Source of the DNA: Candidatus Nezhaarchaeales archaeon
GTDB lineage: Archaea > Thermoproteota > Methanomethylicia > Nezhaarchaeales > WYZ-LMO8
Length of the DNA stretch: 12,054 nt
Assembly: GCA_038887515.1 (NCBI GenBank)
Contig: JAWAKK010000005.1
Location: 1 to 12,054 of the forward strand
Reading direction: 5' to 3'
Shown here: piece by piece, positions 1,662 through 11,744 of the stretch
How the letters are laid out: the number at the start of each line of letters is the position of its first letter
How positions within the stretch are numbered: the first letter of the stretch is position 1
Notes under the pieces: generated by a model
What the model saw: the letters and a program-made list of their open reading frames with translations, nothing else
What the model was told of the DNA's origin: nothing
Databases searched by the model: none
Made by a program: the position numbers and the translations under genes

Positions 1662-2401
1662 TACCGCTGCTTTACACCAATAATTCTGAATGTAGGCACG
1701 GATATCGGAAGTCTTGTAGGAAAGTACCTGTCGAACAGCAGCGGGTTGAGGGGCAAGAGGAACCACCTTTCCACGTGGCCCTTGAATCCATGATGCTTTA
1801 AAAGGCGCTCAACCTCCTCTTTGCTTCTGAACTCAGAGACGTGATGTTCCACCACACTGCTTGCCTTCAAGAGTGCCTTAGCATAGAGCCTTGAGAATAG
1901 CGCATCTATGGTGGGAATAGCCCATGGAGTTTGCAGGAGGAGAACCCCTTGGGGCATTAGCAGGCGGTAGCAGTCCCCTAGAAAGGCGGATGGATCTTGG
2001 AGGTGCTCTAAAACTTCGAAACATGTAATAAGGTCGTAGGACCCCCATCGGAAAGGCAGCTTCTGAGCGTCGCATACTACGAGGTTTCCCGTAAGGTTCC
2101 TCGCGTACCTATGCACGTAAAGCCTTGACACATCACAACCGTAGGCTTCATACCCTAGATGCAAAAGCAGCTCGACGAGATATCCATGGGCGCAGCCGAC
2201 ATCCAATGCTTTTCTTCCTGCTCCCTTGAACAGGTTGAAGGGCGAACGGCTTGCAGCCCACTTCAGGAAGTCGCAATACAGCGCTCGAATTGCGCTGCGC
2301 TTCTTGTGGTAAGCATGCCAGCTTTCAAAGTACCATTTTTCAAGTCGACCCCTGTCCTGTGATGTTGTTGAGGCCTGCTCACGATCTTTCCCGAGGCTCA
2401 T
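1661..2401 (-). CDS. Class I SAM-dependent methyltransferase (Methyltransf_11/23-like)
   Basis: Motif I ALDVGCAHG, then YGCDVS and CDAQKLPF..SYDLITCFEVLEHL. Overlaps the upstream gene by 23 bp, so probably co-transcribed. Confidence 0.93.
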   Translation of the reverse strand: MSLGKDREQASTTSQDRGRLEKWYFESWHAYHKKRSAIRALYCDFLKWAASRSPFNLFKGAGRKALDVGCAHGYLVELLLHLGYEAYGCDVSRLYVHRYARNLTGNLVVCDAQKLPFRWGSYDLITCFEVLEHLQDPSAFLGDCYRLLMPQGVLLLQTPWAIPTIDALFSRLYAKALLKASSVVEHHVSEFRSKEEVERLLKHHGFKGHVERWFLLPLNPLLFDRYFPTRLPISVPTFRIIGVKQR

Positions 2402-3902
2402 AGCTCATCAATTCCTCGATTATAAGCCCTGAATTTGTATCTGAGCAGCTGGCGATGCCTACGACCCTAAGGACCAGCAGGTAGTTGGCGGCTCCTAGCG
2501 GGATGGCTTCGCTCTCAAGCATGCCGCTGGCCTTGATAAGGCCGCCGGAGCTGCTGTAAAAAGAGCAGCCACTATCCCAGTACCAACCGTAGGGGATCCA
2601 CTCCGAGTTCCACACTGCGTGAACCCATACTAGGAAAAGGTCGTGGGCAAGCTGCCCCTCGCTGAGCTGAAGGCTCTCATCAGCCATGGCTAGCCACCCC
2701 CCTCTCCCAACACGGATGAAGATCGGCATCGCCAAGTTTAGGCCGGGCTCTAGGGGTAGCGTATAGTCTCCGTAGGCGTAGTACTTCAACCCTTGCCTCT
2801 CCAACGCGTTTCCATCAAACATCGAATACGCCTCCAGCATGGAGAGGCCCAGCGTTCCCGATATCCTCGTTGGGCTGTACGTGAAGTACGCGTGCAGCGC
2901 GCTCCTCAAGATTGGCTCCCTGCTCGAGGAGCCCGCCAGAAATTCTTGGACGTCGACGAGCCCTGAGTAGTCCCTAGACCACGAGTATGATCCGTCCCTG
3001 TATAATATCCTCTTATGGGGTTGTAAGGAGCCTACTGTTACCAGTACCAGCCCTTCGTCGAACATCATGTCGTATAGCCTTGACTTACCATGCTTCGAAT
3101 CGTCTCGAAGAAGGCCGTTCCCGTTCGGGTCTAGAAGCGGCGCAGGTAGAACGTTGAAAAGTCTTCTCCCCTGAGAGTCCTTAAGTGGGTACACGAGTAT
3201 CAGCACGCTTTTCTTCATTGGTGAGCCAATGCTTTCACACATCGTTTCAAGCGCGTAGTAGTTTAACTTGTAGATTGGCACACCGTACGAGTTAAAGTGC
3301 TCTATCAAGGCGTCAGCCAGCCTGATGGCTTCATCGGCCATGTAATCTGGGTCGTAGAATATGTAGGTGTTCCTAAAGGTAGCATTAAAGGAGGAGTACA
3401 CGAAGAGCATTACGTGAAGCGATGTTGTTCCGTTGCCTTCAGCTTTGTATCCAACCCTAACTTTTAAGGAGTCCGAGCCTCGATCTACCTCTACGCCGCA
3501 TACCTCTAGCTTCAGGTTTGGCTCCACCACCGGAGCTTTAGCTTTCACCTTCAAGAATGCCCCGTTAGCCAAGTCGATCCTTATGTTGTACTCCTCGCCC
3601 ATCCTCCACGGGTACTTAAAGATGTATCGAGCCTCTCCTCCATGAGCTAGTATGCGGTCACTTATTGATGATTTTTCAACGGCCAAGCCGTTAACAAGCA
3701 CCCCCTCAACCTCAACCGCTCCCCCCTCAGCCTTGACGAGGAGCTCTATGCTCCTCTCCTCTTCCCCCAACGTGAATAGGATTCCCTTTATTGAAAGCTT
3801 AGATGAAGAGGTTGCGTACGGGAGGTACACAGCTACGCAGCATGCAACCACGAGAATAACTACTGCGGAGGCCGCCACATAGATTGGTGCCTTCCCCTTC
3901 AT
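2379..3902 (-). CDS. Membrane-anchored/secreted hypothetical protein with an archaeal pilin-like N-terminal domain
   Basis: 507 aa. Short basic leader MKG followed by a hydrophobic helix, then a beta-strand pattern (KLSI...IELLVKAEGGAVEVEGVLVNG...GEEYNIRIDLANG) resembling archaeal type IV pilin globular domains. Sequons NGT and NAT. The ORF is solid; the domain call is by eye. Confidence 0.7.
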   Translation of the reverse strand: MKGKAPIYVAASAVVILVVACCVAVYLPYATSSSKLSIKGILFTLGEEERSIELLVKAEGGAVEVEGVLVNGLAVEKSSISDRILAHGGEARYIFKYPWRMGEEYNIRIDLANGAFLKVKAKAPVVEPNLKLEVCGVEVDRGSDSLKVRVGYKAEGNGTTSLHVMLFVYSSFNATFRNTYIFYDPDYMADEAIRLADALIEHFNSYGVPIYKLNYYALETMCESIGSPMKKSVLILVYPLKDSQGRRLFNVLPAPLLDPNGNGLLRDDSKHGKSRLYDMMFDEGLVLVTVGSLQPHKRILYRDGSYSWSRDYSGLVDVQEFLAGSSSREPILRSALHAYFTYSPTRISGTLGLSMLEAYSMFDGNALERQGLKYYAYGDYTLPLEPGLNLAMPIFIRVGRGGWLAMADESLQLSEGQLAHDLFLVWVHAVWNSEWIPYGWYWDSGCSFYSSSGGLIKASGMLESEAIPLGAANYLLVLRVVGIASCSDTNSGLIIEELMSYEPRERS

Positions 3903-3996: not shown

Positions 3997-5103
3997 TTGG
4001 ACTTCTTGCTCGTATGTGACGCCATGATGGATTTAGAGGGCGGAAACAGGCCGGCTGCCTGCCTAGCTTATGAGTTGGCCAGGAGGGGTTTCGACGTCTC
4101 GGTCGCGTCTCCGGTGATGTCAAGGGATGTAGAGGGGTGGCTGAACAGGGCTGGCATCACCCCCATAAACTTGAAGGCCAAGCTCCTCTGCAAGGGCCTA
4201 GGTTATTCCCTGCTGTGGTTTGAGCTTTGGACGCGGGAGGCGTTCTTCAGGCTTACATCAAGGAGGCTTGGAAAGGCCTTTGCTACAGTTAACTTCTCAC
4301 ACGTGCTCGCTACCGAAGCCCTATTCTGGTACGCTCAGGGGGCCACGTCAATGGCCCTCGAGGATGGATGGATGGATATGCCCAAGGCCTACAGGCTCGG
4401 CTACATGGCCTCGAAGCCGGTGATAGGCTGGGCTGATAGGCTCCTAGTTAAAGAGGTTTGTAATAGGTCGAGGTTTGTCATCGCTAACTCCAGGTTCTGC
4501 GCGTCCATGTACGAGAAGTACGGAGTCAAGATCCACAAAGTCATATACCCACCAATAGACCTCAACATATTCAAGCCAACAACAAGCAGGCCAACAGAGG
4601 ACTACGTGCTCACATACCTCGGAAAGGAGTCAAAGACATCCGTGATAAAGAAGGTAGCGGATAGGGGAGTCAAAATAAAGGCCTTCGGCTCGAAACCCCC
4701 ATTCCTAAAAGACGAGCTCAAAAAACACCCAAACATAGAGCTCCTCGGAAGAGTCCCAACAAGAAGGCTGGTGGAGCTCTACTCAAACGCGCTTTACACG
4801 TTGTTCACATTCACCCACGAGCCCTTCGGCTACATACCCCTAGAAAGCATGGCCTGCGGAACCCCAGTGCTAACCTACAACAAGCAGGGACCCTCAGAAA
4901 CGGTGATCCACGGCCGCACAGGCTGGCTCGTCCAAGACGACGACGAAATGGTTGAGACGGCGGAAAAGCTCTGGAAAAATGGGTACAACCATCAAGCGAG
5001 GACCCAGTGCGTAAAGGAAGCAGAAAAGCTCGACACTAGCCACTATATCCAAGCATGGAGCGATGTACTTCAGAAAGCGTTGAATGCCGAGCAAGCAAGG
5101 TAA
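3997..5103 (+). CDS. Glycosyltransferase family 4 (GT-B fold)
   Basis: N-terminal GG motif, VIANSRF, VIYPPID and the EPFGYIPLESMACGTPV (Ex7E) signature; TTG start with AAGGTG upstream. Confidence 0.95.
   Translation: MDFLLVCDAMMDLEGGNRPAACLAYELARRGFDVSVASPVMSRDVEGWLNRAGITPINLKAKLLCKGLGYSLLWFELWTREAFFRLTSRRLGKAFATVNFSHVLATEALFWYAQGATSMALEDGWMDMPKAYRLGYMASKPVIGWADRLLVKEVCNRSRFVIANSRFCASMYEKYGVKIHKVIYPPIDLNIFKPTTSRPTEDYVLTYLGKESKTSVIKKVADRGVKIKAFGSKPPFLKDELKKHPNIELLGRVPTRRLVELYSNALYTLFTFTHEPFGYIPLESMACGTPVLTYNKQGPSETVIHGRTGWLVQDDDEMVETAEKLWKNGYNHQARTQCVKEAEKLDTSHYIQAWSDVLQKALNAEQAR
4870..4994 (+). repeat. 125-bp block identical to the reverse complement of 11930-12054
   Basis: Base-by-base comparison of CTAACCTACAACAAG...GGGTACAACCATCA shows no mismatch. 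The partner copy is cut by the window edge, so the repeat may be longer. Confidence 0.97.
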
Positions 5104-5251
5104 AATGCTGGCTTCGCAGGTCAAATATTTTGGGGGCTTCGAAAGCGATTATAGAACTTTGATCGAACACCGTACGCTATTCTTCACTTTGGGTCGCTCA
5201 GCAGTTTCTAGATATGTAGAGCTTTATAGACGTTCATGGATATTTATCTTG

Positions 5252-5467
5252 ATGAGTGTAGAGGAGCATTATATGATGAAGGAAACCAGTAGAATTATTG
5301 GCGTTAGTGCCAGGCAACTTCAAATTTGGGATAAGCAAGGATTAATTAGATGTGTGAGGAACGCCTGGGAGTAGAAGGAGAGCACCTGAAAGCTAAATAA
5401 AACGTCTTCTCGGGGTAAAAGAACTCGATGTAAGTCGTAAAATCGTAATACATGCCAGAAGCTCACC
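5252..5467 (+). pseudogene. tnpA: IS607 TnpA (MerR-HTH + serine recombinase) N-terminal fragment
   Basis: MSVEEHYMMKETSRIIGVSARQLQIWDKQGLIRCVR, an extra A near 5360, then TPGSRRRAPES*IKRLLGVKELDVSRKIVIHARSS (TAA at 5394-5396). This follows the IS607 TnpA pattern ...TPGGRRRIPESEI...VVIYARVSS. TTTATA at 5223-5228. Confidence 0.88.
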
Positions 5468-5753
5468 CATATCAGGGAGAGAATACAGTATTGTAGGAAG
5501 ATGAATAGAAGGCTTCACAGCATGCCATTTAGGAAAGCCCAATTCTACATTTTGTATAAATCCATGGGATATGGCTCCACCCCTGAACTCGTCGATGCTA
5601 AGAATACTTCTAAGGCATATCTGATGTGTGTGGCAGATCAAAAAAGCCGAATAGATGTGTCTTTAAGTGTTAGAAAGTGTGGCTTCCAAGTGGACAGGCA
5701 TTTAGTTGCAGCCTAGAACATAGCCATGAAGCCCCCTGTGCCATCCTTTATAG
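5468..5753 (+). pseudogene. tnpB: TnpB C-terminal fragment (post-RuvC-II helix, zinc finger, RuvC-III)
   Basis: HIRERIQYCRKMNRRLHSMPFRKAQFYILYKS...ELVDAKNTSK, a degraded zinc finger (KPNRCVFKC in a shifted frame), then KCGFQVDRHLVAA*NIAMK (TAG at 5714-5716 where W is expected). Confidence 0.88.
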
Positions 5754-5761
5754 GTGATGGT

Positions 5762-6234
5762 ATGGAGAAGAAACTAAGCGAGCTCGGAAAAGCTGGCTTT
5801 CTGTTATTATTGATGCAGAATGTTCGTTAACAATAAAGATGGTAAGAAGACAAAATAAAATAAGAGGCTTCAAGTGGGATTGTGTACTTTCATTAACCAA
5901 CACAAATGAAGGCCTCATTAGAAAATTCAATGAAATATGTAATGGTTCTGGCTACATAATCAACCATTCAACAAAACATTGAAAAGCCGATTGGAAACCT
6001 CGAAAAAATAAAAAATCTTATACTACGTGTGAATTCTTTGAGGTTGGTTGTTACCAGAAGTACTTCCACAACTAATTGTGAAAAAGACAAGCCGAGCTAT
6101 TAATTGAGGCGCTTAGTTGTCTTAAACAAGATCGTAAAGGCCATACTCCCTATGATAATAGACCCAAAGAAATTTACGATGAGGTGAGGAAACTGAATCG
6201 AAGAAGTGTAACCGTTGGCGGCGAAAGCCCTTAA
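5762..6234 (+). pseudogene. Single-motif LAGLIDADG homing endonuclease, frameshifted
   Basis: AGGTGA RBS then ATG at 5762. Stitched translation: MEKKLSEL/KSWLSVIIDAECSLTIKMVRRQNKIRGFKWDCVLSLTNTNEGLIRKFNEICNGSGYIINHSTKH*KADWKPR/.../LLPEVLPQLIVKK/QAELLIEALSCLKQ...EIYDEVRKLNRR. WLSVIIDAECS (5794-5826) is the LAGLIDADG helix. The NT-x-x-L, LP-x-L-x-VKK-x-QA and final KLN features fit the family. Absent from the ORF track. Confidence 0.8.
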
Positions 6235-6267
6235 TGAGCCTCGAGTAATAGAGGTGAAGGGGAAAGA

Positions 6268-7044
6268 ATGAAAATCTATGAATCCCACAACAGTCGCAAG
6301 CAGCTAAAGATTATGGTAGTGGCGATTGTGGTGTGCATCATGGTTTCAGTGTTTTTTGCGGTGAGTTGGAGCCGCGAGGATGATGATAGATGTGATGAAA
6401 GGCGAGGCTTGTTAACTGCCGCATTAATCGACGGGTTATATGAGTGTGAGCCTAACCTTGACTTCACGGATAAGCTTTTGGATATGCTTGAAAGTGCGGG
6501 GTTCCACGTTGATATTTACAGAAGGGATAACGTAACCGTGGATCTCCTCATGAACTTGGAGGGTTATAAGCTCCTAGTTCTCAGAGTTCACAGCGCCATG
6601 CACTCAGACGGTTGGCTGTATGTATTTAGCGGAGAACACTACCGCGAAGAAAAGTACGTTAAGGAGCAGCTTGCGGGGGCGGTGAAGAAGGGCTACACGT
6701 TCAACGGGGTCGAGAAGCCCTACTTCGCCTTAAACATAGCTTTCCTAGGAGGGAATAGGGCTGGAGCGCTGGAAGGATCCACGGTGATACTGATGGGGTG
6801 CAACGGCTCTGGAGACCCCTACTCCGTCAGCAGGCTGCTTGAAAAGGGCGTTGAAGCGCTCTTCGCTTGGAGTGGCTACGTAGACCTAAGACACTCCGAC
6901 AAGGCCACTCTGATTCTAGTAGAAGCGCTCTACGGAGAGGGGCTAAGCCCCAGAGAGGCTGCCGAGAAGGTTCAGCGAGAAGCGGGGCCCGACCCAATCT
7001 ACGGCAGCATTCTAAGGTGCTTCACGAAGAATTGGCATGGGTGA
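6268..7044 (+). CDS. Membrane-anchored hypothetical protein with a probable caspase/CHAT/gingipain-like (clan CD) fold
   Basis: N-terminal TM helix. LLVLRVHSA (His after a hydrophobic strand) and VILMGCNG (Cys after a hydrophobic strand) are followed by GVEALFAWSGYV...ALYGEGLSPREA. GAGGTGA RBS at 6251-6257. Confidence 0.7.
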   Translation: MKIYESHNSRKQLKIMVVAIVVCIMVSVFFAVSWSREDDDRCDERRGLLTAALIDGLYECEPNLDFTDKLLDMLESAGFHVDIYRRDNVTVDLLMNLEGYKLLVLRVHSAMHSDGWLYVFSGEHYREEKYVKEQLAGAVKKGYTFNGVEKPYFALNIAFLGGNRAGALEGSTVILMGCNGSGDPYSVSRLLEKGVEALFAWSGYVDLRHSDKATLILVEALYGEGLSPREAAEKVQREAGPDPIYGSILRCFTKNWHG

Positions 7045-7045
7045 G

Positions 7046-8113
7046 CTACGCAGAAAGCTCTTTATTCAAAGCGTCTACAGTGTCGAAGGGAAGCCACTTG
7101 CTTGGCTCTATGCGGTAGTTTCGGCCCATTCTCTTGACGTTGATGTAGCCCATTAACTCCAGCTCCCCCAGAACATCTTTCAACCTCCTCTCGCTGAGCT
7201 CTGGAAACCCGTAACTCCTAGCAACCTCGTAGAAGTTCCTGTAAGCTTCGCCGACCGTCTCCGATCGCAAAGCCGCAAGCAACATCAGCTTGTGGGCTGT
7301 GCTGAGCCCCTTCAATCCCTCCTCAACGTAGGCTCTCTCAACACGCTTCCTAGCCTCATATATGTAATCGACTTTAAGCCTATCACCATTCACGACGCAC
7401 ATCTTCACCGCCTCCCTCAACAAGTCTATTGCATAGCGTGCATCACCGCCCTTTTGGGCGGCTAAAGCCGAGAGGAGCCTCAAAGACTCCTCATTTGTGA
7501 AGCTCTCCACAGGCACCCCTTCCCTCAAAGTCATCGCCAGCCTATCCCTAACTATCATGTATATCTCCTCGGACTTGTATGGAGGAAAGAGTAGGAGTTG
7601 TGGGTTGAACCTACTTTTAACTCTCACATCCTTCACGTAGTCGTGAAGGTTCATCTTGTTGCTTATCAAGATAAGGCCCGTGTTGGGCCTGTTCGTAACC
7701 ATGTATAGGAGCTCGTCGCTCTTCTCATCCCTAACCATAAATTTCTCAGCTTCATCTATAACAATCACGCAGCGCCCTGGAAGGCTGTCTTCCATCTCAC
7801 CCCACAGAGCCCCGAAGCTGAGGCCCCACTTCCTCTTGCCGGTAAGCATAGTGTGAAGGGCCACAAGGGTGCCGTAAGCCGAGGGCTCGCTAACAGTGTA
7901 AAGGCTTGGCACATCCACATCGCTTAGGACCTTTCTGACTGTGACGGTTTTCCCGCTTCCCGAAGGGCCCAGAACAATGAAGTTGGGGGGCGGGAAGCCC
8001 TCGCCGACCAGTTTAAGCTCAACGAGAAGCCTCTCGTACTCCCTATCCCTACACAAGAGGCGGGGAGGTATGAATGCGTGGTTCAAAACCCCTAAGTCCT
8101 TTATAAAGGACAA
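7046..8113 (-). CDS. cdc6: Orc1/Cdc6 replication initiator (AAA+ ATPase + winged helix)
   Basis: Walker A GPSGSGKT, Walker B VIVIDEAE, FPPYKSEEI...RL, sensor-2 GDARYAIDLLR and a C-terminal wHTH (LGELELMGYI). The ORF track starts at GTG 8140; I prefer TTG 8113 (MSFIKD...) because AGGTG lies 6 nt upstream. Confidence 0.95.
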   Translation of the reverse strand: MSFIKDLGVLNHAFIPPRLLCRDREYERLLVELKLVGEGFPPPNFIVLGPSGSGKTVTVRKVLSDVDVPSLYTVSEPSAYGTLVALHTMLTGKRKWGLSFGALWGEMEDSLPGRCVIVIDEAEKFMVRDEKSDELLYMVTNRPNTGLILISNKMNLHDYVKDVRVKSRFNPQLLLFPPYKSEEIYMIVRDRLAMTLREGVPVESFTNEESLRLLSALAAQKGGDARYAIDLLREAVKMCVVNGDRLKVDYIYEARKRVERAYVEEGLKGLSTAHKLMLLAALRSETVGEAYRNFYEVARSYGFPELSERRLKDVLGELELMGYINVKRMGRNYRIEPSKWLPFDTVDALNKELSA

Positions 8114-8224
8114 GACCAACACCTGAAAGACTTCCTGCACTTATCTCACTCTTTGAGACCTATTTCACCCTTGCGAATTCACTACACTAAAAACACCTTT
8201 GAAGTGTTCCTTCACCTATATGCA

Positions 8225-9200: not shown

Positions 9201-11744
9201 ATGGAGAAAAGTAAGGGTATATTAGGTGTACTGCTAATACTGTTGTTCTCCACGTCTCTTGTGCTGGCCGGGTTGAGGCCGGCAACCGTTCTCGCGGTTG
9301 GTTCAGACGACTACATGACCGTGAACGGCGTCTTAGATACGGATCGCTACACGCTTTACCCCTACAAGAGCGCGCTTCTAAAGGTGGGCCTCTCGAAGTA
9401 CGGTGAGCTGATAGACGACACGACCAACGTGGGCTTGGAGTACGACAACGCGCGTGACCCCTTCGCCCCGGTTGCGGGGGCAACAGTGCCGCCAGAGCTT
9501 CAGAAGAAAGTGTGGATAAACGGGTGGTACATTGATATAATTTACAACCACTCAACTTGGGGTGTGAGGAACGTTTGGGCTGGCGCGCTCTTCGCTGACA
9601 TAACGAGCTACGGCGGCCCGTGGCTTAGGGTGGACAACGATTACGGTTCCTGCCAATACGAGAAGGATGAGAACTTCAAGTGCCCTGGAAAGCAGATAGA
9701 CCCTGAAAACCCTGGTGACGTGATAGGTCCATTACTGAATGGTGGCAGGAAGACGAACGGCACCGTGATAACGGATCCGCTTCAGGTTCTCTACGACGGC
9801 CCGAGGCTGTTCGTGGCCAAGATAACGAACCACATCTATGACTGGTATGAGCCTACCAAAGCTAACAGGCACATCGTGGACCTTGTGCTGACAGTGATCT
9901 TCAACAAGGTTAAGAAGGAGGTCGTAGTAATAAAGGACGTCAAGCTTGTCCCCTCAGCCAAGTTCGAGGTGCTGCCCTTAGTGCTCTACGACTCGGATAA
10001 CAATAAATTTGAAATTGAGAATGGATACCTGGTGCAGCTGAGCAACAGGGAGGAGTGGGATCTAGGCACCATTGCATCCGGCACAACTTCATATTCAAGC
10101 TACGCCCACTTCTACGTTGCGGACTGTGGGGAAGGGCAGGAAACAGTGTACAATGGGAGCTGGGTTATGATCCCGACGCTCCCGGCAGGCATCAAGGTCG
10201 GCAATCTCGCAGCAACACCAGTCAACAAGTACGGAGGGCAGCCCTCTACGAGCGCTGCAACATACGACGTGGCCCAGATAATATCCAACGACAGGAAATA
10301 CGTTGGCTGGCACGCCTTCTGGCCCAGCCTGAGCGACTACACCGTGTACGCAGGCCAAGACAACATATGGTGGAGGGCGCTTAACGCGAACGATCCGCAC
10401 CGCACTGACGGTTTAAGCGAGCCTTGGCGTTCACCGCTGATCGTGGGCGAGTGGGACTTCCTGCTGGGCGAGCCTGCTAGGGACTACGGTTCTGGAGTGG
10501 TGAGCGGAGTCCAGTTCAGGGGCGTAAGCGTCTACGGCGTTACGGACCTCAACGACGGCAAGGATGCGGCGTTTGGTGAGGTTAATGCTATCGACCGCGA
10601 GGTCAAGTACCAGCTGAATGAGATATTCAACCCGTGGGACCTCTATGATTCAGTTCACAAGAGCACTATGCGCTTTGTTGATATCAGAACTGTATCAGCT
10701 TCAACACAAACTAAAGTAGACATTAAAGTTGGAGCCTCCGCAGTTATATCCAAGGAGGCTGCCAGTCCTGGTAACCCGCCTGGCACCTCGTGGTATGACT
10801 ACTGCAATGCAACTGAGCGCGTCATAGTTGATGGATACCTAATAAAGCCGGGATCCGGAAATCCACCCAGCTATGTTGCAACAAATAAGAACGGTATATG
10901 GTATATCAATGTGACGATACCTGCTGGAACCCACACCATTAAGGTACTCTGGTCAAACTCTACAACTCCTGGACGTTATGAATGGGTGGTCGTTGGCAGG
11001 GACGCCATGACCGTCGACTCCGCAGGTGCAGCTCTGGTAACTTCAGCCTTCAAGGACAAGATAATTGAAAGTAATAAAAAGGCCGGCGCCTTCATAGGAC
11101 TGGCCGGCGCGGACTTCTACGGCAAGTACGTTGATATGGAGATGCCCTGGGTTATGAGGAAGTTCGGCGCCGCCAACAACTTCGAGGACTACTTCTACGT
11201 CAAGCCGACGGATCAGCGCATGGCCTTGAAGGACGACTGGTGCACGACGTGGCCGATAGCCAGCAGCAACATGATAGGCGTGGGTGGACCACTTGCGAAC
11301 GCCTTAACGTACTACTTCAACGATTTCGCCCAGGCGTTCTACGCGTTGCCCTGGAGGACAACCTACACGCCTTGGAGTGAAAAAATAGTTCCGCTCACCT
11401 GCTGGGATATGACGAAGACAAGTGCCTACCGGTCAGGCGAAACCGTGGGCTACGCTGTGATCTCAACCTACAAGGACATTAACGGCACAGTGGGCCTCCT
11501 CATATGGGGCAACTGGGGAAGGGACACCTACTACGTGACGAAGTGGTTCCACGAAGAAGGCATCTACCAGCTGCAGGAAGCCCCACCTGGCTTGACATCG
11601 ATAATAGTTAAGATAGACTACAAGTACTACGCCGGTGAAGGCTACAAGCCGAAAAGCTTCAGCATAGTCGAGTGCCTAGGAACCATAAGCGAAACGCTTT
11701 GGAAGCACGGAAATGAAATTAAGGGCGGAATACACGACCCGTAA
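9201..11744 (+). CDS. Large secreted glycoprotein, probable S-layer protein
   Basis: Signal peptide; 847 aa rich in G/T/V/Y/W/D; seven N-X-S/T sequons (NHS, NGT x2, NGS, NAT, NVT, NST). The C-terminal region has VVVGRDAMTVDSAGAALV and NMIGVGGPLANALT, resembling the IVVG..A...D...A and ILVGGP.AN motifs of Thermococcales/Methanococcales-type S-layer N/C domains. Strong C/G-ending codon bias, with its own promoter and terminator. Confidence 0.75.
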   Translation: MEKSKGILGVLLILLFSTSLVLAGLRPATVLAVGSDDYMTVNGVLDTDRYTLYPYKSALLKVGLSKYGELIDDTTNVGLEYDNARDPFAPVAGATVPPELQKKVWINGWYIDIIYNHSTWGVRNVWAGALFADITSYGGPWLRVDNDYGSCQYEKDENFKCPGKQIDPENPGDVIGPLLNGGRKTNGTVITDPLQVLYDGPRLFVAKITNHIYDWYEPTKANRHIVDLVLTVIFNKVKKEVVVIKDVKLVPSAKFEVLPLVLYDSDNNKFEIENGYLVQLSNREEWDLGTIASGTTSYSSYAHFYVADCGEGQETVYNGSWVMIPTLPAGIKVGNLAATPVNKYGGQPSTSAATYDVAQIISNDRKYVGWHAFWPSLSDYTVYAGQDNIWWRALNANDPHRTDGLSEPWRSPLIVGEWDFLLGEPARDYGSGVVSGVQFRGVSVYGVTDLNDGKDAAFGEVNAIDREVKYQLNEIFNPWDLYDSVHKSTMRFVDIRTVSASTQTKVDIKVGASAVISKEAASPGNPPGTSWYDYCNATERVIVDGYLIKPGSGNPPSYVATNKNGIWYINVTIPAGTHTIKVLWSNSTTPGRYEWVVVGRDAMTVDSAGAALVTSAFKDKIIESNKKAGAFIGLAGADFYGKYVDMEMPWVMRKFGAANNFEDYFYVKPTDQRMALKDDWCTTWPIASSNMIGVGGPLANALTYYFNDFAQAFYALPWRTTYTPWSEKIVPLTCWDMTKTSAYRSGETVGYAVISTYKDINGTVGLLIWGNWGRDTYYVTKWFHEEGIYQLQEAPPGLTSIIVKIDYKYYAGEGYKPKSFSIVECLGTISETLWKHGNEIKGGIHDP

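Follow-up and report, generated by a model that had tools for sequence, protein, structure and literature searches.

A decayed IS607-type element

The window analysed here is a 12,054-nucleotide stretch of Candidatus Nezhaarchaeales archaeon DNA (contig JAWAKK010000005.1, assembly GCA_038887515.1), and all features described below lie on its + strand. The locus holds a dead copy of an IS607-type insertion sequence with a decayed single-motif LAGLIDADG endonuclease gene nested inside it. The left end of the element and the 5' remnant of tnpA occupy positions from about 5195 to 5435, with an open frame at 5201-5371 and an ATG near 5243. Homology to relatives starts at about 5198. The remnant encodes a MerR-type HTH (Pfam MerR_1, E 1e-6) and has 70.5% nucleotide identity to the tnpA 5' part of the intact element in L011, a related locus whose TnpA hits Resolvase and MerR. 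An internal deletion of about 1.2 kb, with its junction at 5436-5477, removed the tnpA 3' part and the tnpB 5' part: window positions 5435 and 5478 correspond to L011 positions 3038 and 1772, which is 1266 bp in the intact relative against 43 bp here. The tnpB 3' remnant (5478-5750) covers the zinc-ribbon/TNB and RuvC-III region and has an in-frame TAG at 5714-5716. The TNB remnant itself was detected at 5441-5713 with one TAG inside (PF07282, E 1e-6 and 2.2e-8, 29.1-34.9 bits against a cut-off of 26.3 bits), and the nucleotide identity to tnpB 3' ends of relatives was 70-73%.

Downstream of the insert, positions 6212-6294 form the 3' part of the omega-RNA (reRNA) scaffold, which also codes for the TnpB C-terminal tail (frame 2, 6212-6268). 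This stretch has 82-85% identity to right ends of relatives. It ends in the right-end pentamer AACAG (6289-6293; relatives have AACGG), and the right end is at about 6294, as conservation stops after GGT. Judged only from its position just outside the right end, the flank at 6295-6315 is inferred to be the stretch that would be read as the guide.

Position of the insertion

The initial annotation had proposed that two motifs, TGTGCCATCC (5737-5746) and CCGTTGGCGGCGAAAGCCCTTAATGA (6212-6237), are normally adjacent and form a stem of the omega-RNA. To test this, the flanks were compared with relatives by BLASTN and MAFFT. Window positions 5469-5750 and 6211-6294 matched positions 1501-1781 and 1781-1864 of the related locus L006, and the two flanks were adjacent in 25 of 25 related copies fetched. 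The insert is therefore 461 bp, either 5751-6211 or 5750-6210, because one A fits both sides. Its GC content is 0.37-0.40, against about 0.52 in the flanks. A 51-nt match in one further genome lay in an unrelated large gene and is a chance hit. The reading that the gene merely neighbours the IS, or is cargo placed there by an unrelated event, is refuted by this base-precise junction; the covariation, the downstream pseudoknot partner and the recurrence described below also speak against it, and after testing nothing was found in its favor.

The flanks of the insert form a covarying hairpin. Its 5' strand (GCCATC, 5740-5745) is followed by the 5' half of the loop (CTTTA, 5746-5750), and on the other side of the insert lie the 3' half of the loop (CCGTT, 6212-6216), the 3' stem strand (GGCGGC, 6217-6222) and a conserved GAAAGCC (6223-6229). 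The hairpin has seven pairs with 96% of cells paired, and three of the seven pairs showed compensatory change in 10-11 of 22 sequences. The stem of the window has A where its relatives have G (GCCGTC), which gives one mismatch, and it is decayed, as had been suggested. The consensus structure as a whole comprises five helices with 93% of cells paired. Its covariation score was 0.335, against 0.154 when shuffled (0 of 500 shuffles reached the observed score) and at most 0.105 when slid, although related sequences inflate the shuffle control. The minimum free energy fold of one insert-free omega-RNA was strongly structured (z -6.2) but did not pick the covarying hairpin, and we therefore relied on covariation. 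No Rfam family matched the omega-RNA, the insert or the intact loci.

In three respects the initial annotation needs correction. First, it had placed the insertion in a peripheral loop and in the first stem of the omega-RNA, whereas at least two covarying helices lie upstream of this hairpin (helix 3), and the 3' pentamer of its loop pairs with the pentamer at the right end of the transposon to form a pseudoknot. The two pentamers were fully complementary at the homologous place in 10 of the 15 elements examined, with the variants CCGTT/AACGG, CTGTT/AACGG, TCGCC/GGCGA, CCGCC/GGCGG and GCGTT/AACGC. Three of these five pairs carry changes on both sides. In loci L091, L108 and L109 the wrong pentamer was picked automatically; read by eye, L108 and L109 are complementary at 5 of 5 positions and L091 at 4 of 5. 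L092 is complementary at 4 of 5 positions and L100 is broken. The window carries one mismatch. Second, the site also lies inside the tnpB reading frame. In all 21 window-type copies in which the RuvC-III codons were found (of 22), the tnpB frame stays open through the hairpin; it stops about 15-26 nt before the right end in 18 copies and is still open at the end of the aligned stretch in 3. As the site lies 21-25 codons before the tnpB stop in window-type elements, the insertion truncates the TnpB tail as well. Third, the proposed analogy with endonuclease genes in intron loops is incomplete, because no splicing signal was found (see below).

The inserted LAGLIDADG gene

The insert consists of a short leader with a Shine-Dalgarno-like motif (GGTGAT, 5753-5758), an ATG (5762) and a decayed single-motif LAGLIDADG gene. 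The read-through of the window scored 18.0 bits (E 0.0056) against Pfam LAGLIDADG_1, below the cut-off of 23.1 bits. A word-index protein search with the read-through gave 12 candidates, none at E <= 0.01, plain phmmer against PDB gave nothing, and a search of the 62 genomes of the window's class retrieved only the window itself. In contrast, phmmer against 1.84 billion representatives gave 84 hits at E <= 1e-3, the best at 5e-12, which aligned end to end to proteins of 140-160 aa. When 8 of these 84 hits were searched against the window by tblastn, they aligned in frame 1 at 5770-6216 with E 1e-17 to 1e-12 and three in-frame stops. The gene is broken: the start is in frame 2 and the body in frame 1, there is a TGA at 5980, and a frame-0 detour at 6042-6104 carries the helix that homologues have at that place. 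The endonuclease frame reads through the 3' flank to a TAA at 6232-6234. The same read-through tail is present in L053, L108, L109 and L110, so that in five loci, including the window, the last codons and the stop come from the host sequence.

To place the family, a profile was built from the homologues. LAGLIDADG_1 was found in 18 of 30 aligned members. The profile hit I-MsoI (1.3e-23 for a fused two-copy chain, 5e-11 for a monomer), I-CreI, I-CvuI and an archaeal rRNA-intron endonuclease (PDB 3e54), with matches to these chains at 1e-8 to 1e-11 apart from the fused I-MsoI chain. In the alignment D19 is invariant and E21 nearly invariant, and both are present in the window. Searches of viral contigs with two of the closest homologues found no relative, and a cluster look-up of the eight best homologues gave no names and no context.

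Related genes in the same loop of other elements

Eight further distinct loci carry a related LAGLIDADG gene in the same loop, and two of them, in other hot-environment archaea, have all three genes intact. L086 (the same element as L106 and L107) has tnpA (Resolvase, 1.6e-25), tnpB (TNB, 1.5e-19, 399 aa) and the endonuclease gene. L111 has an open tnpA, a 421-aa open tnpB frame and the endonuclease gene. TnpA of L086 and L111, like that of L011, hits Resolvase and an HTH family. L053, in genome G165, has an intact endonuclease gene of 165 aa. L108, L109 and L110 have open endonuclease genes, while L087 (the same as L113) and L112 are broken. The gene is thus open in 6 of 9 distinct loci including the window. 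Of the intact genes, those of L086 (31.3 bits), L053 (28.6 bits), L111 (27.3 bits), L110 (27.1 bits) and L109 (23.8 bits) score above the LAGLIDADG_1 cut-off. The stem stays complementary across the insert in the loci examined.

The insert is polymorphic. A DNA contig in sequencing run X4 joins L086 positions 2456 and 2974, skipping 517 nt, with flanks about 88-90% alike; it is therefore a relative and not the same allele, but it shows that an insert-free relative coexists in the same community. The TnpB of L086 is 75% identical to that of the insert-free genome G242, but only 46% and 34% identical to those of the insert-bearing L109 and L111, a patchiness that rests on pairwise identities and not on a tree. 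The insertion point differs by about 3-4 nt between the two lineages: it is at the loop centre in the window type, and after the first loop nucleotide in L086, judged from the X4 joint.

Splicing, vertical inheritance or homing

One possibility is that the insert is an archaeal bulge-helix-bulge or other intron, whose removal would restore both the tnpB mRNA and the omega-RNA, as with endonuclease-bearing rRNA introns of Thermoproteota. Members of the same protein family lie inside 23S rRNA in loci L059, L074 and L075, the insert is almost entirely ORF, as is probably also the case in archaeal rRNA introns, and the position in a stem-loop would suit a splicing motif. However, a scan for a 4-bp helix flanked by 3-nt bulges on opposite strands found no candidate that removes the insert in the window; the best candidate removes 460 rather than 461 nt and most of its pairs are G-U wobbles. 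None lies at the junctions of the intact copies L053 and L086, although relaxed motifs used by crenarchaeal enzymes could have been missed. Rfam gave no intron or ribozyme family at E <= 10 for window positions 5000-6400 or at E <= 1 for L086 and L111. The use of the downstream 'exon' for the last codons and stop in five loci also speaks against an intron, which we consider very unlikely. Endonuclease-bearing introns such as that of I-DmoI appear to share Thermoproteota hosts, a LAGLIDADG gene filling almost the whole insert and insertion in a structured RNA, but the enzyme here is of the single-motif and not the two-domain type.

Alternatively, the gene may have entered this loop once, long ago, and now be inherited only with the IS, for example as a maturase-like helper of omega-RNA folding, a regulator or a second retention nuclease. 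The position is the same in all nine loci, six of nine genes are open at only 57-65% identity, which indicates purifying selection, and the stems stay complementary. In L086 and L053 the TAA of the upstream frame overlaps the endonuclease ATG, and L111, the element most distant in TnpA and TnpB, is also the most distant in the endonuclease. On the other hand, the closest TnpB relative of L086 (G242) lacks the insert, an insert-free relative coexists with L086, the endonuclease survives intact where tnpB is almost gone (L053), and the acidic residues of the catalytic motif are conserved. We consider this reading unlikely.

In the absence of cleavage, homing or RNA data, we infer that the likeliest mechanism is homing of a free-standing endonuclease gene cassette (short leader, ribosome-binding site, about 150 codons) into the hairpin-encoding DNA, a reading to which we assign a probability of roughly 0.78. 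The endonuclease is inferred to work as a homodimer, like I-CreI, and to recognise the DNA encoding the hairpin, whose 6+10+6 (or 6+9+6) layout is a natural 21-22-bp pseudo-palindrome. It would cut near the centre of the loop and be copied into insert-free IS copies by repair from an insert-bearing copy. This would make it a parasite of a parasite, exploiting a site that cannot easily mutate because it is constrained as RNA and as protein. It is probably translated from the tnpB transcript. In Sulfolobus islandicus TnpB7 at least 113 nt of CDS-derived RNA are needed and the RNA is about 176 nt (PMC11043419), and the insertion in the window lies 84 nt from the right end. Some observations fit this model less well. 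The stems differ among insert-bearing loci (five different sequences), and a protein that reads the stems would need to co-evolve with them or tolerate variation. Several insert-bearing copies sit in decayed IS elements. In G165 the flanks of the intact endonuclease gene have no second copy and no tnpB elsewhere in the genome passes the cut-off, so there are no targets there, which fits recent arrival or another role.

Comparison with known systems

Homing endonuclease genes are known in self-splicing introns, archaeal introns, inteins and intergenic DNA, and TnpB is itself now seen as an RNA-guided homing nuclease. As with I-CreI, I-MsoI, I-CvuI and the enzyme of PDB 3e54, the gene encodes about 150 aa with one LAGLIDADG-type motif and sits in the loop of a structured RNA gene at a highly conserved site. 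Here, however, the host is not an intron or an intein, and the target is the guide-RNA gene and 3' coding tail of a transposon nuclease. Compared with IS607-family elements with TnpB and omega-RNA, a third gene, encoding a protein-guided nuclease, is nested in the pseudoknot hairpin. Literature searches, which did not include subscription journals and supplements, returned no paper whose title or abstract describes this arrangement, and where consulted, PMC13565253, 10.1101/2023.11.20.567912 and PMC12558985 mention LAGLIDADG enzymes only in general terms or not in this context. IStrons likewise combine a transposon carrying TnpB with a second kind of selfish element, with structured RNAs that share sequence with the guide RNA (10.1101/2023.11.20.567912). 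In IStrons the partner is a self-splicing ribozyme that removes the whole IS from host transcripts, and TnpB replaces the endonuclease, whereas in this archaeal case the partner is an endonuclease gene without a ribozyme, nested inside the IS.

A more speculative reading, which is doubtful on present evidence, is that the three-gene element is a working unit. The omega-RNA would still fold because the stem closes over a 0.5-kb loop that is at the same time the mRNA of the endonuclease, or it would be cut in that loop and work as two base-paired RNAs, a natural split guide resembling the crRNA:tracrRNA pair. The element would then combine a serine recombinase for transposition, an RNA-guided nuclease for retention at the donor site and a protein-guided nuclease that drives gene conversion among IS copies, and the DNA palindrome of the hairpin would be the reason a homodimeric enzyme could capture an RNA-structure gene as its target.

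The inserts of 0.46-0.52 kb mark a position of an archaeal omega-RNA that may tolerate an insertion of this size, which is of interest for engineering guide scaffolds. In Sulfolobus islandicus TnpB7 at least 113 nt of CDS-derived RNA are needed and the RNA is about 176 nt (PMC11043419), and the insertion in the window lies 84 nt from the right end.

Genomic context of the insertion

The two motifs flanking the putative insertion (5737-5746 and 6212-6237), first noted in the initial annotation, were confirmed at these positions. The stretch 5100-6300 was GC-poor (0.37-0.42 against about 0.52 around it) and contained only broken frames. Pfam analysis identified a MerR-type HTH in 5201-5371 (E 1e-6) and a TnpB TNB domain in 5441-5713 (E 1e-6), together with a weak LAGLIDADG_1 signal in 5758-5979 (E 0.1). 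The genome (1.29 Mb, 9 contigs) had only one other tnpB trace, a 3' remnant on contig 7 (positions 289-440 of the locus L003; PF07282 E 9.7e-5, below the cut-off). This remnant had an insert-free version of the hairpin, with a longer loop and a partly different stem, and a divergent right end. The neighboring genes were an Orc1/Cdc6-type ATPase (7046-8140, minus strand), a GT4 glycosyltransferase (3997-5103, plus strand), a large protein with a weak S-layer C-terminal domain hit (9201-11744, plus strand) and a 507-aa ORF with no Pfam family (2379-3902, minus strand). The ORF listed at 6268-7044 (plus strand) started at an ATG that lies inside the right end of the IS (6268), and the conserved right-end sequence of relatives contained the same ATG. 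The true start of this downstream gene is more likely the ATG near 6313, which opens a hydrophobic N-terminus; Pfam gave only a weak Amidase_3 hint (E 0.12).

To determine whether the two motifs are adjacent in related elements, window 5150-6270 was searched by BLASTN against 60 related genomes. Copies in which query positions up to 601 and from 1062 onward abut on the subject were found twice in genome G049 and once in genome G059. Local BLAST placed window 5469-5750 and 6211-6294 on positions 1501-1781 and 1781-1864 of L006, an insert-free IS copy in G049, and a MAFFT alignment showed one clean gap. A tRNA gene (Rfam 31.2 bits) was located at L006 1946-2033, about 80 nt beyond the right end of this copy. 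A wider search with an insert-free copy found matches in 32 of 401 genomes of the phylum and, after four more places had been retrieved, 26 distinct copies carrying the motif were listed. In all 25 copies apart from the window, the 5' half lies directly in front of the 3' half. The insertion is therefore real and precise, and comprises 461 bp (5751-6211 or 5750-6210).

Structure and coding capacity of the target hairpin

The structure of the target was investigated using an alignment of 22 insert-free copies. In the consensus structure the two halves form a 7-pair helix, three pairs of which switch between C-G and G-C in 10-11 of 22 sequences, and 96% of the cells of this helix were paired. 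The whole-structure covariation score was 0.335, against 0.154 for shuffles (0 of 500 reached it) and at most 0.105 for slid partners, although shuffles overstate significance for related sequences. More distant subfamilies used other complementary stems.

The 3' five bases of the loop are complementary to five bases that follow the right-end hairpin, just inside the right end. Of 15 elements of the distant subfamily examined, 10 showed a 5-of-5 match at that homologous place, with the variants CCGTT/AACGG, CTGTT/AACGG (one wobble), TCGCC/GGCGA, CCGCC/GGCGG and GCGTT/AACGC. In three elements (L091, L108 and L109) the automated comparison selected the wrong pentamer; when read by eye, L108 and L109 were 5 of 5 and L091 was 4 of 5. 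Of the remaining elements, L092 was 4 of 5 and L100 was broken. This matches the published omega-RNA layout, with a pseudoknot between a hairpin loop and the end-proximal sequence, plus a right-end hairpin (PMC12558985). The hairpin is therefore a core element of the guide RNA and not the peripheral one that the initial annotation had proposed. Two further covarying helices lie upstream of it. In Sulfolobus islandicus TnpB7 at least 113 nt of CDS-derived RNA are needed (PMC11043419), while the insertion in the window lies only 84 nt from the right end.

The hairpin is also coding. In the 21 window-type copies in which the RuvC-III codons were found (of 22), the tnpB frame ran through it; the frame stopped about 15-26 nt before the right end in 18 and was still open at the end of the aligned stretch in 3. 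The amino acids change together with the stem: in columns 106-129 of the alignment of 22 insert-free copies, the stem switches between two states and the encoded TnpB tail switches with it (Cys-Arg-Pro...Leu-Ala-Ala against Trp-Gly-Ala...Leu-Pro-Pro). RNA pairing therefore appears to dictate the protein sequence in this overlap.

Identity of the insert and state of the host element

The insert begins with GGTGAT and an ATG (5762). When it was read through with X at the stops, no close relative was found in a word-index search. However, a full phmmer search against 1.84 billion representatives gave 84 hits at E <= 1e-3, the best at 5e-12, nearly all of which were 135-180 aa and aligned over query 10-150. 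In an alignment of 30 sequences the D of the motif was invariant and its E nearly so, and both are kept in the window. Eighteen of the 30 hit LAGLIDADG_1, and the profile hit I-MsoI, I-CreI, I-CvuI and an archaeal rRNA-intron endonuclease in the PDB. A tblastn search of the window with 8 of the 84 homologues gave E 1e-17 to 1e-12 in one frame with three in-frame stops. The helix that homologues have before the conserved 'QAELL' stretch was found in another frame (6042-6104). Together with the start in frame 2, this means at least three frameshifts and one nonsense codon. The frame continues through the 3' stem to a TAA at 6232.

The host copy was compared with L011, the intact element of G049, which encodes a TnpA of 211 aa with Resolvase and MerR and a TnpB of 392 aa with TNB. 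The window lacks about 1.2 kb between 5435 and 5478, its tnpB remnant carries a TAG, and one stem pair and one pseudoknot pair are broken. Both the transposon and its passenger are dead.

Recurrence of the arrangement

A profile search of 401 genomes of the phylum found members of the same LAGLIDADG family in 36. Of five loci checked, three (L059, L074 and L075, from three other genomes of the phylum) lie inside archaeal 23S rRNA genes and are presumably classical rRNA introns. One, L053 in genome G165 (G165:C1:699981-703412), is an intact 165-aa gene whose flanks are a complementary stem, the loop pentamer, the downstream scaffold and a tiny tnpB remnant of only about 12 codons. This gene sits next to a class I lysyl-tRNA-synthetase-like gene, and as no tnpB passed the cut-off elsewhere in that genome, it is kept without any visible target.

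With the L053 protein as query, a scan of a genome collection found two more loci: L086, from a record titled as an uncultured Desulfurococcales archaeon, and L087, from a Thermoprotei MAG. L086 has tnpA (216 aa, Resolvase 1.6e-25), tnpB (399 aa, TNB 1.5e-19) and the endonuclease (156 aa, LAGLIDADG_1 at 31.3 bits), followed by the scaffold and the right end, and the tnpB stop overlaps the endonuclease ATG. A metagenome scan gave 8 loci, of which L106 and L107 are the L086 element and L113 is L087. L108, L109, L110 and L111 have open endonuclease genes, while L112 is frameshifted. L111 has an open tnpA, a 421-aa open tnpB frame (34% identical to L086 TnpB; no Pfam hit) and the endonuclease. In L109 the tnpB is split once, and in L110 it has an internal deletion. 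Counting the window, there are 9 distinct loci; the endonuclease gene is open in 6 of them, and all three genes are open in 2. The protein of the window is only 27% identical to that of L086, so two distant branches of the family occupy the same loop. The finding of the initial annotation, a LAGLIDADG gene inserted in the loop of a TnpB omega-RNA hairpin, is confirmed and extended: the copy in the window is a fossil, but it points to a recurrent element, intact elsewhere, of which our literature searches found no description.

Absence of recognizable splicing signals

To investigate if the insert could be an intron, the regions near the junctions were scanned for bulge-helix-bulge motifs. The scan gave many weak, chance-like hits in the window, but none removes 461 nt; the nearest removes 460 and most of its pairs are wobbles. 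None lies at the junctions of L053 or L086. Rfam found no ribozyme, and no RNA data set was found to hold the element. We therefore read the insert as a free-standing gene cassette, although relaxed motifs could have been missed.

Mobility and putative mechanism of insertion

The closest TnpB relative of L086 is insert-free (genome G242, 75%). Other insert-free relatives are at 50-55%, while insert-bearing L109 and L111 are at 46% and 34%. In G242 and in genome G352 the tnpB end and the scaffold are 30-52 nt apart, against 546-582 nt in L086. A contig in the DNA sequencing run X4 joins L086 2456 to 2974, skipping 517 nt, with flanks about 88-90% alike; it is a relative and not the same allele. 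Together these results, obtained without a phylogenetic tree, fit gain by homing or repeated loss.

The mechanism can only be inferred. Judged by its family, a single-motif LAGLIDADG protein would have to pair to form an active site, and such dimers would prefer pseudo-palindromic sites of about 22 bp. DNA that encodes a 6+10+6 or 6+9+6 hairpin is exactly such a site. In the window type the insert sits at the center of the loop. In L053 (1433-1470 and 1937-1950), L110 and L112 the four bases TGCC stand on both sides of the endonuclease cassette, while insert-free loops have them once, which may suggest a target-site duplication left as a scar of a staggered cut at the center. This was not seen in L086 or in the window, where one base overlaps; in L086 the X4 joint puts the insert after the first loop base. 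The pseudoknot strand is always left intact on the 3' side. The stem stays complementary across the insert, with 6 of 6 pairs in L053, L086, L108, L109, L110 and L112, and 5 of 6 in the window and in L111.
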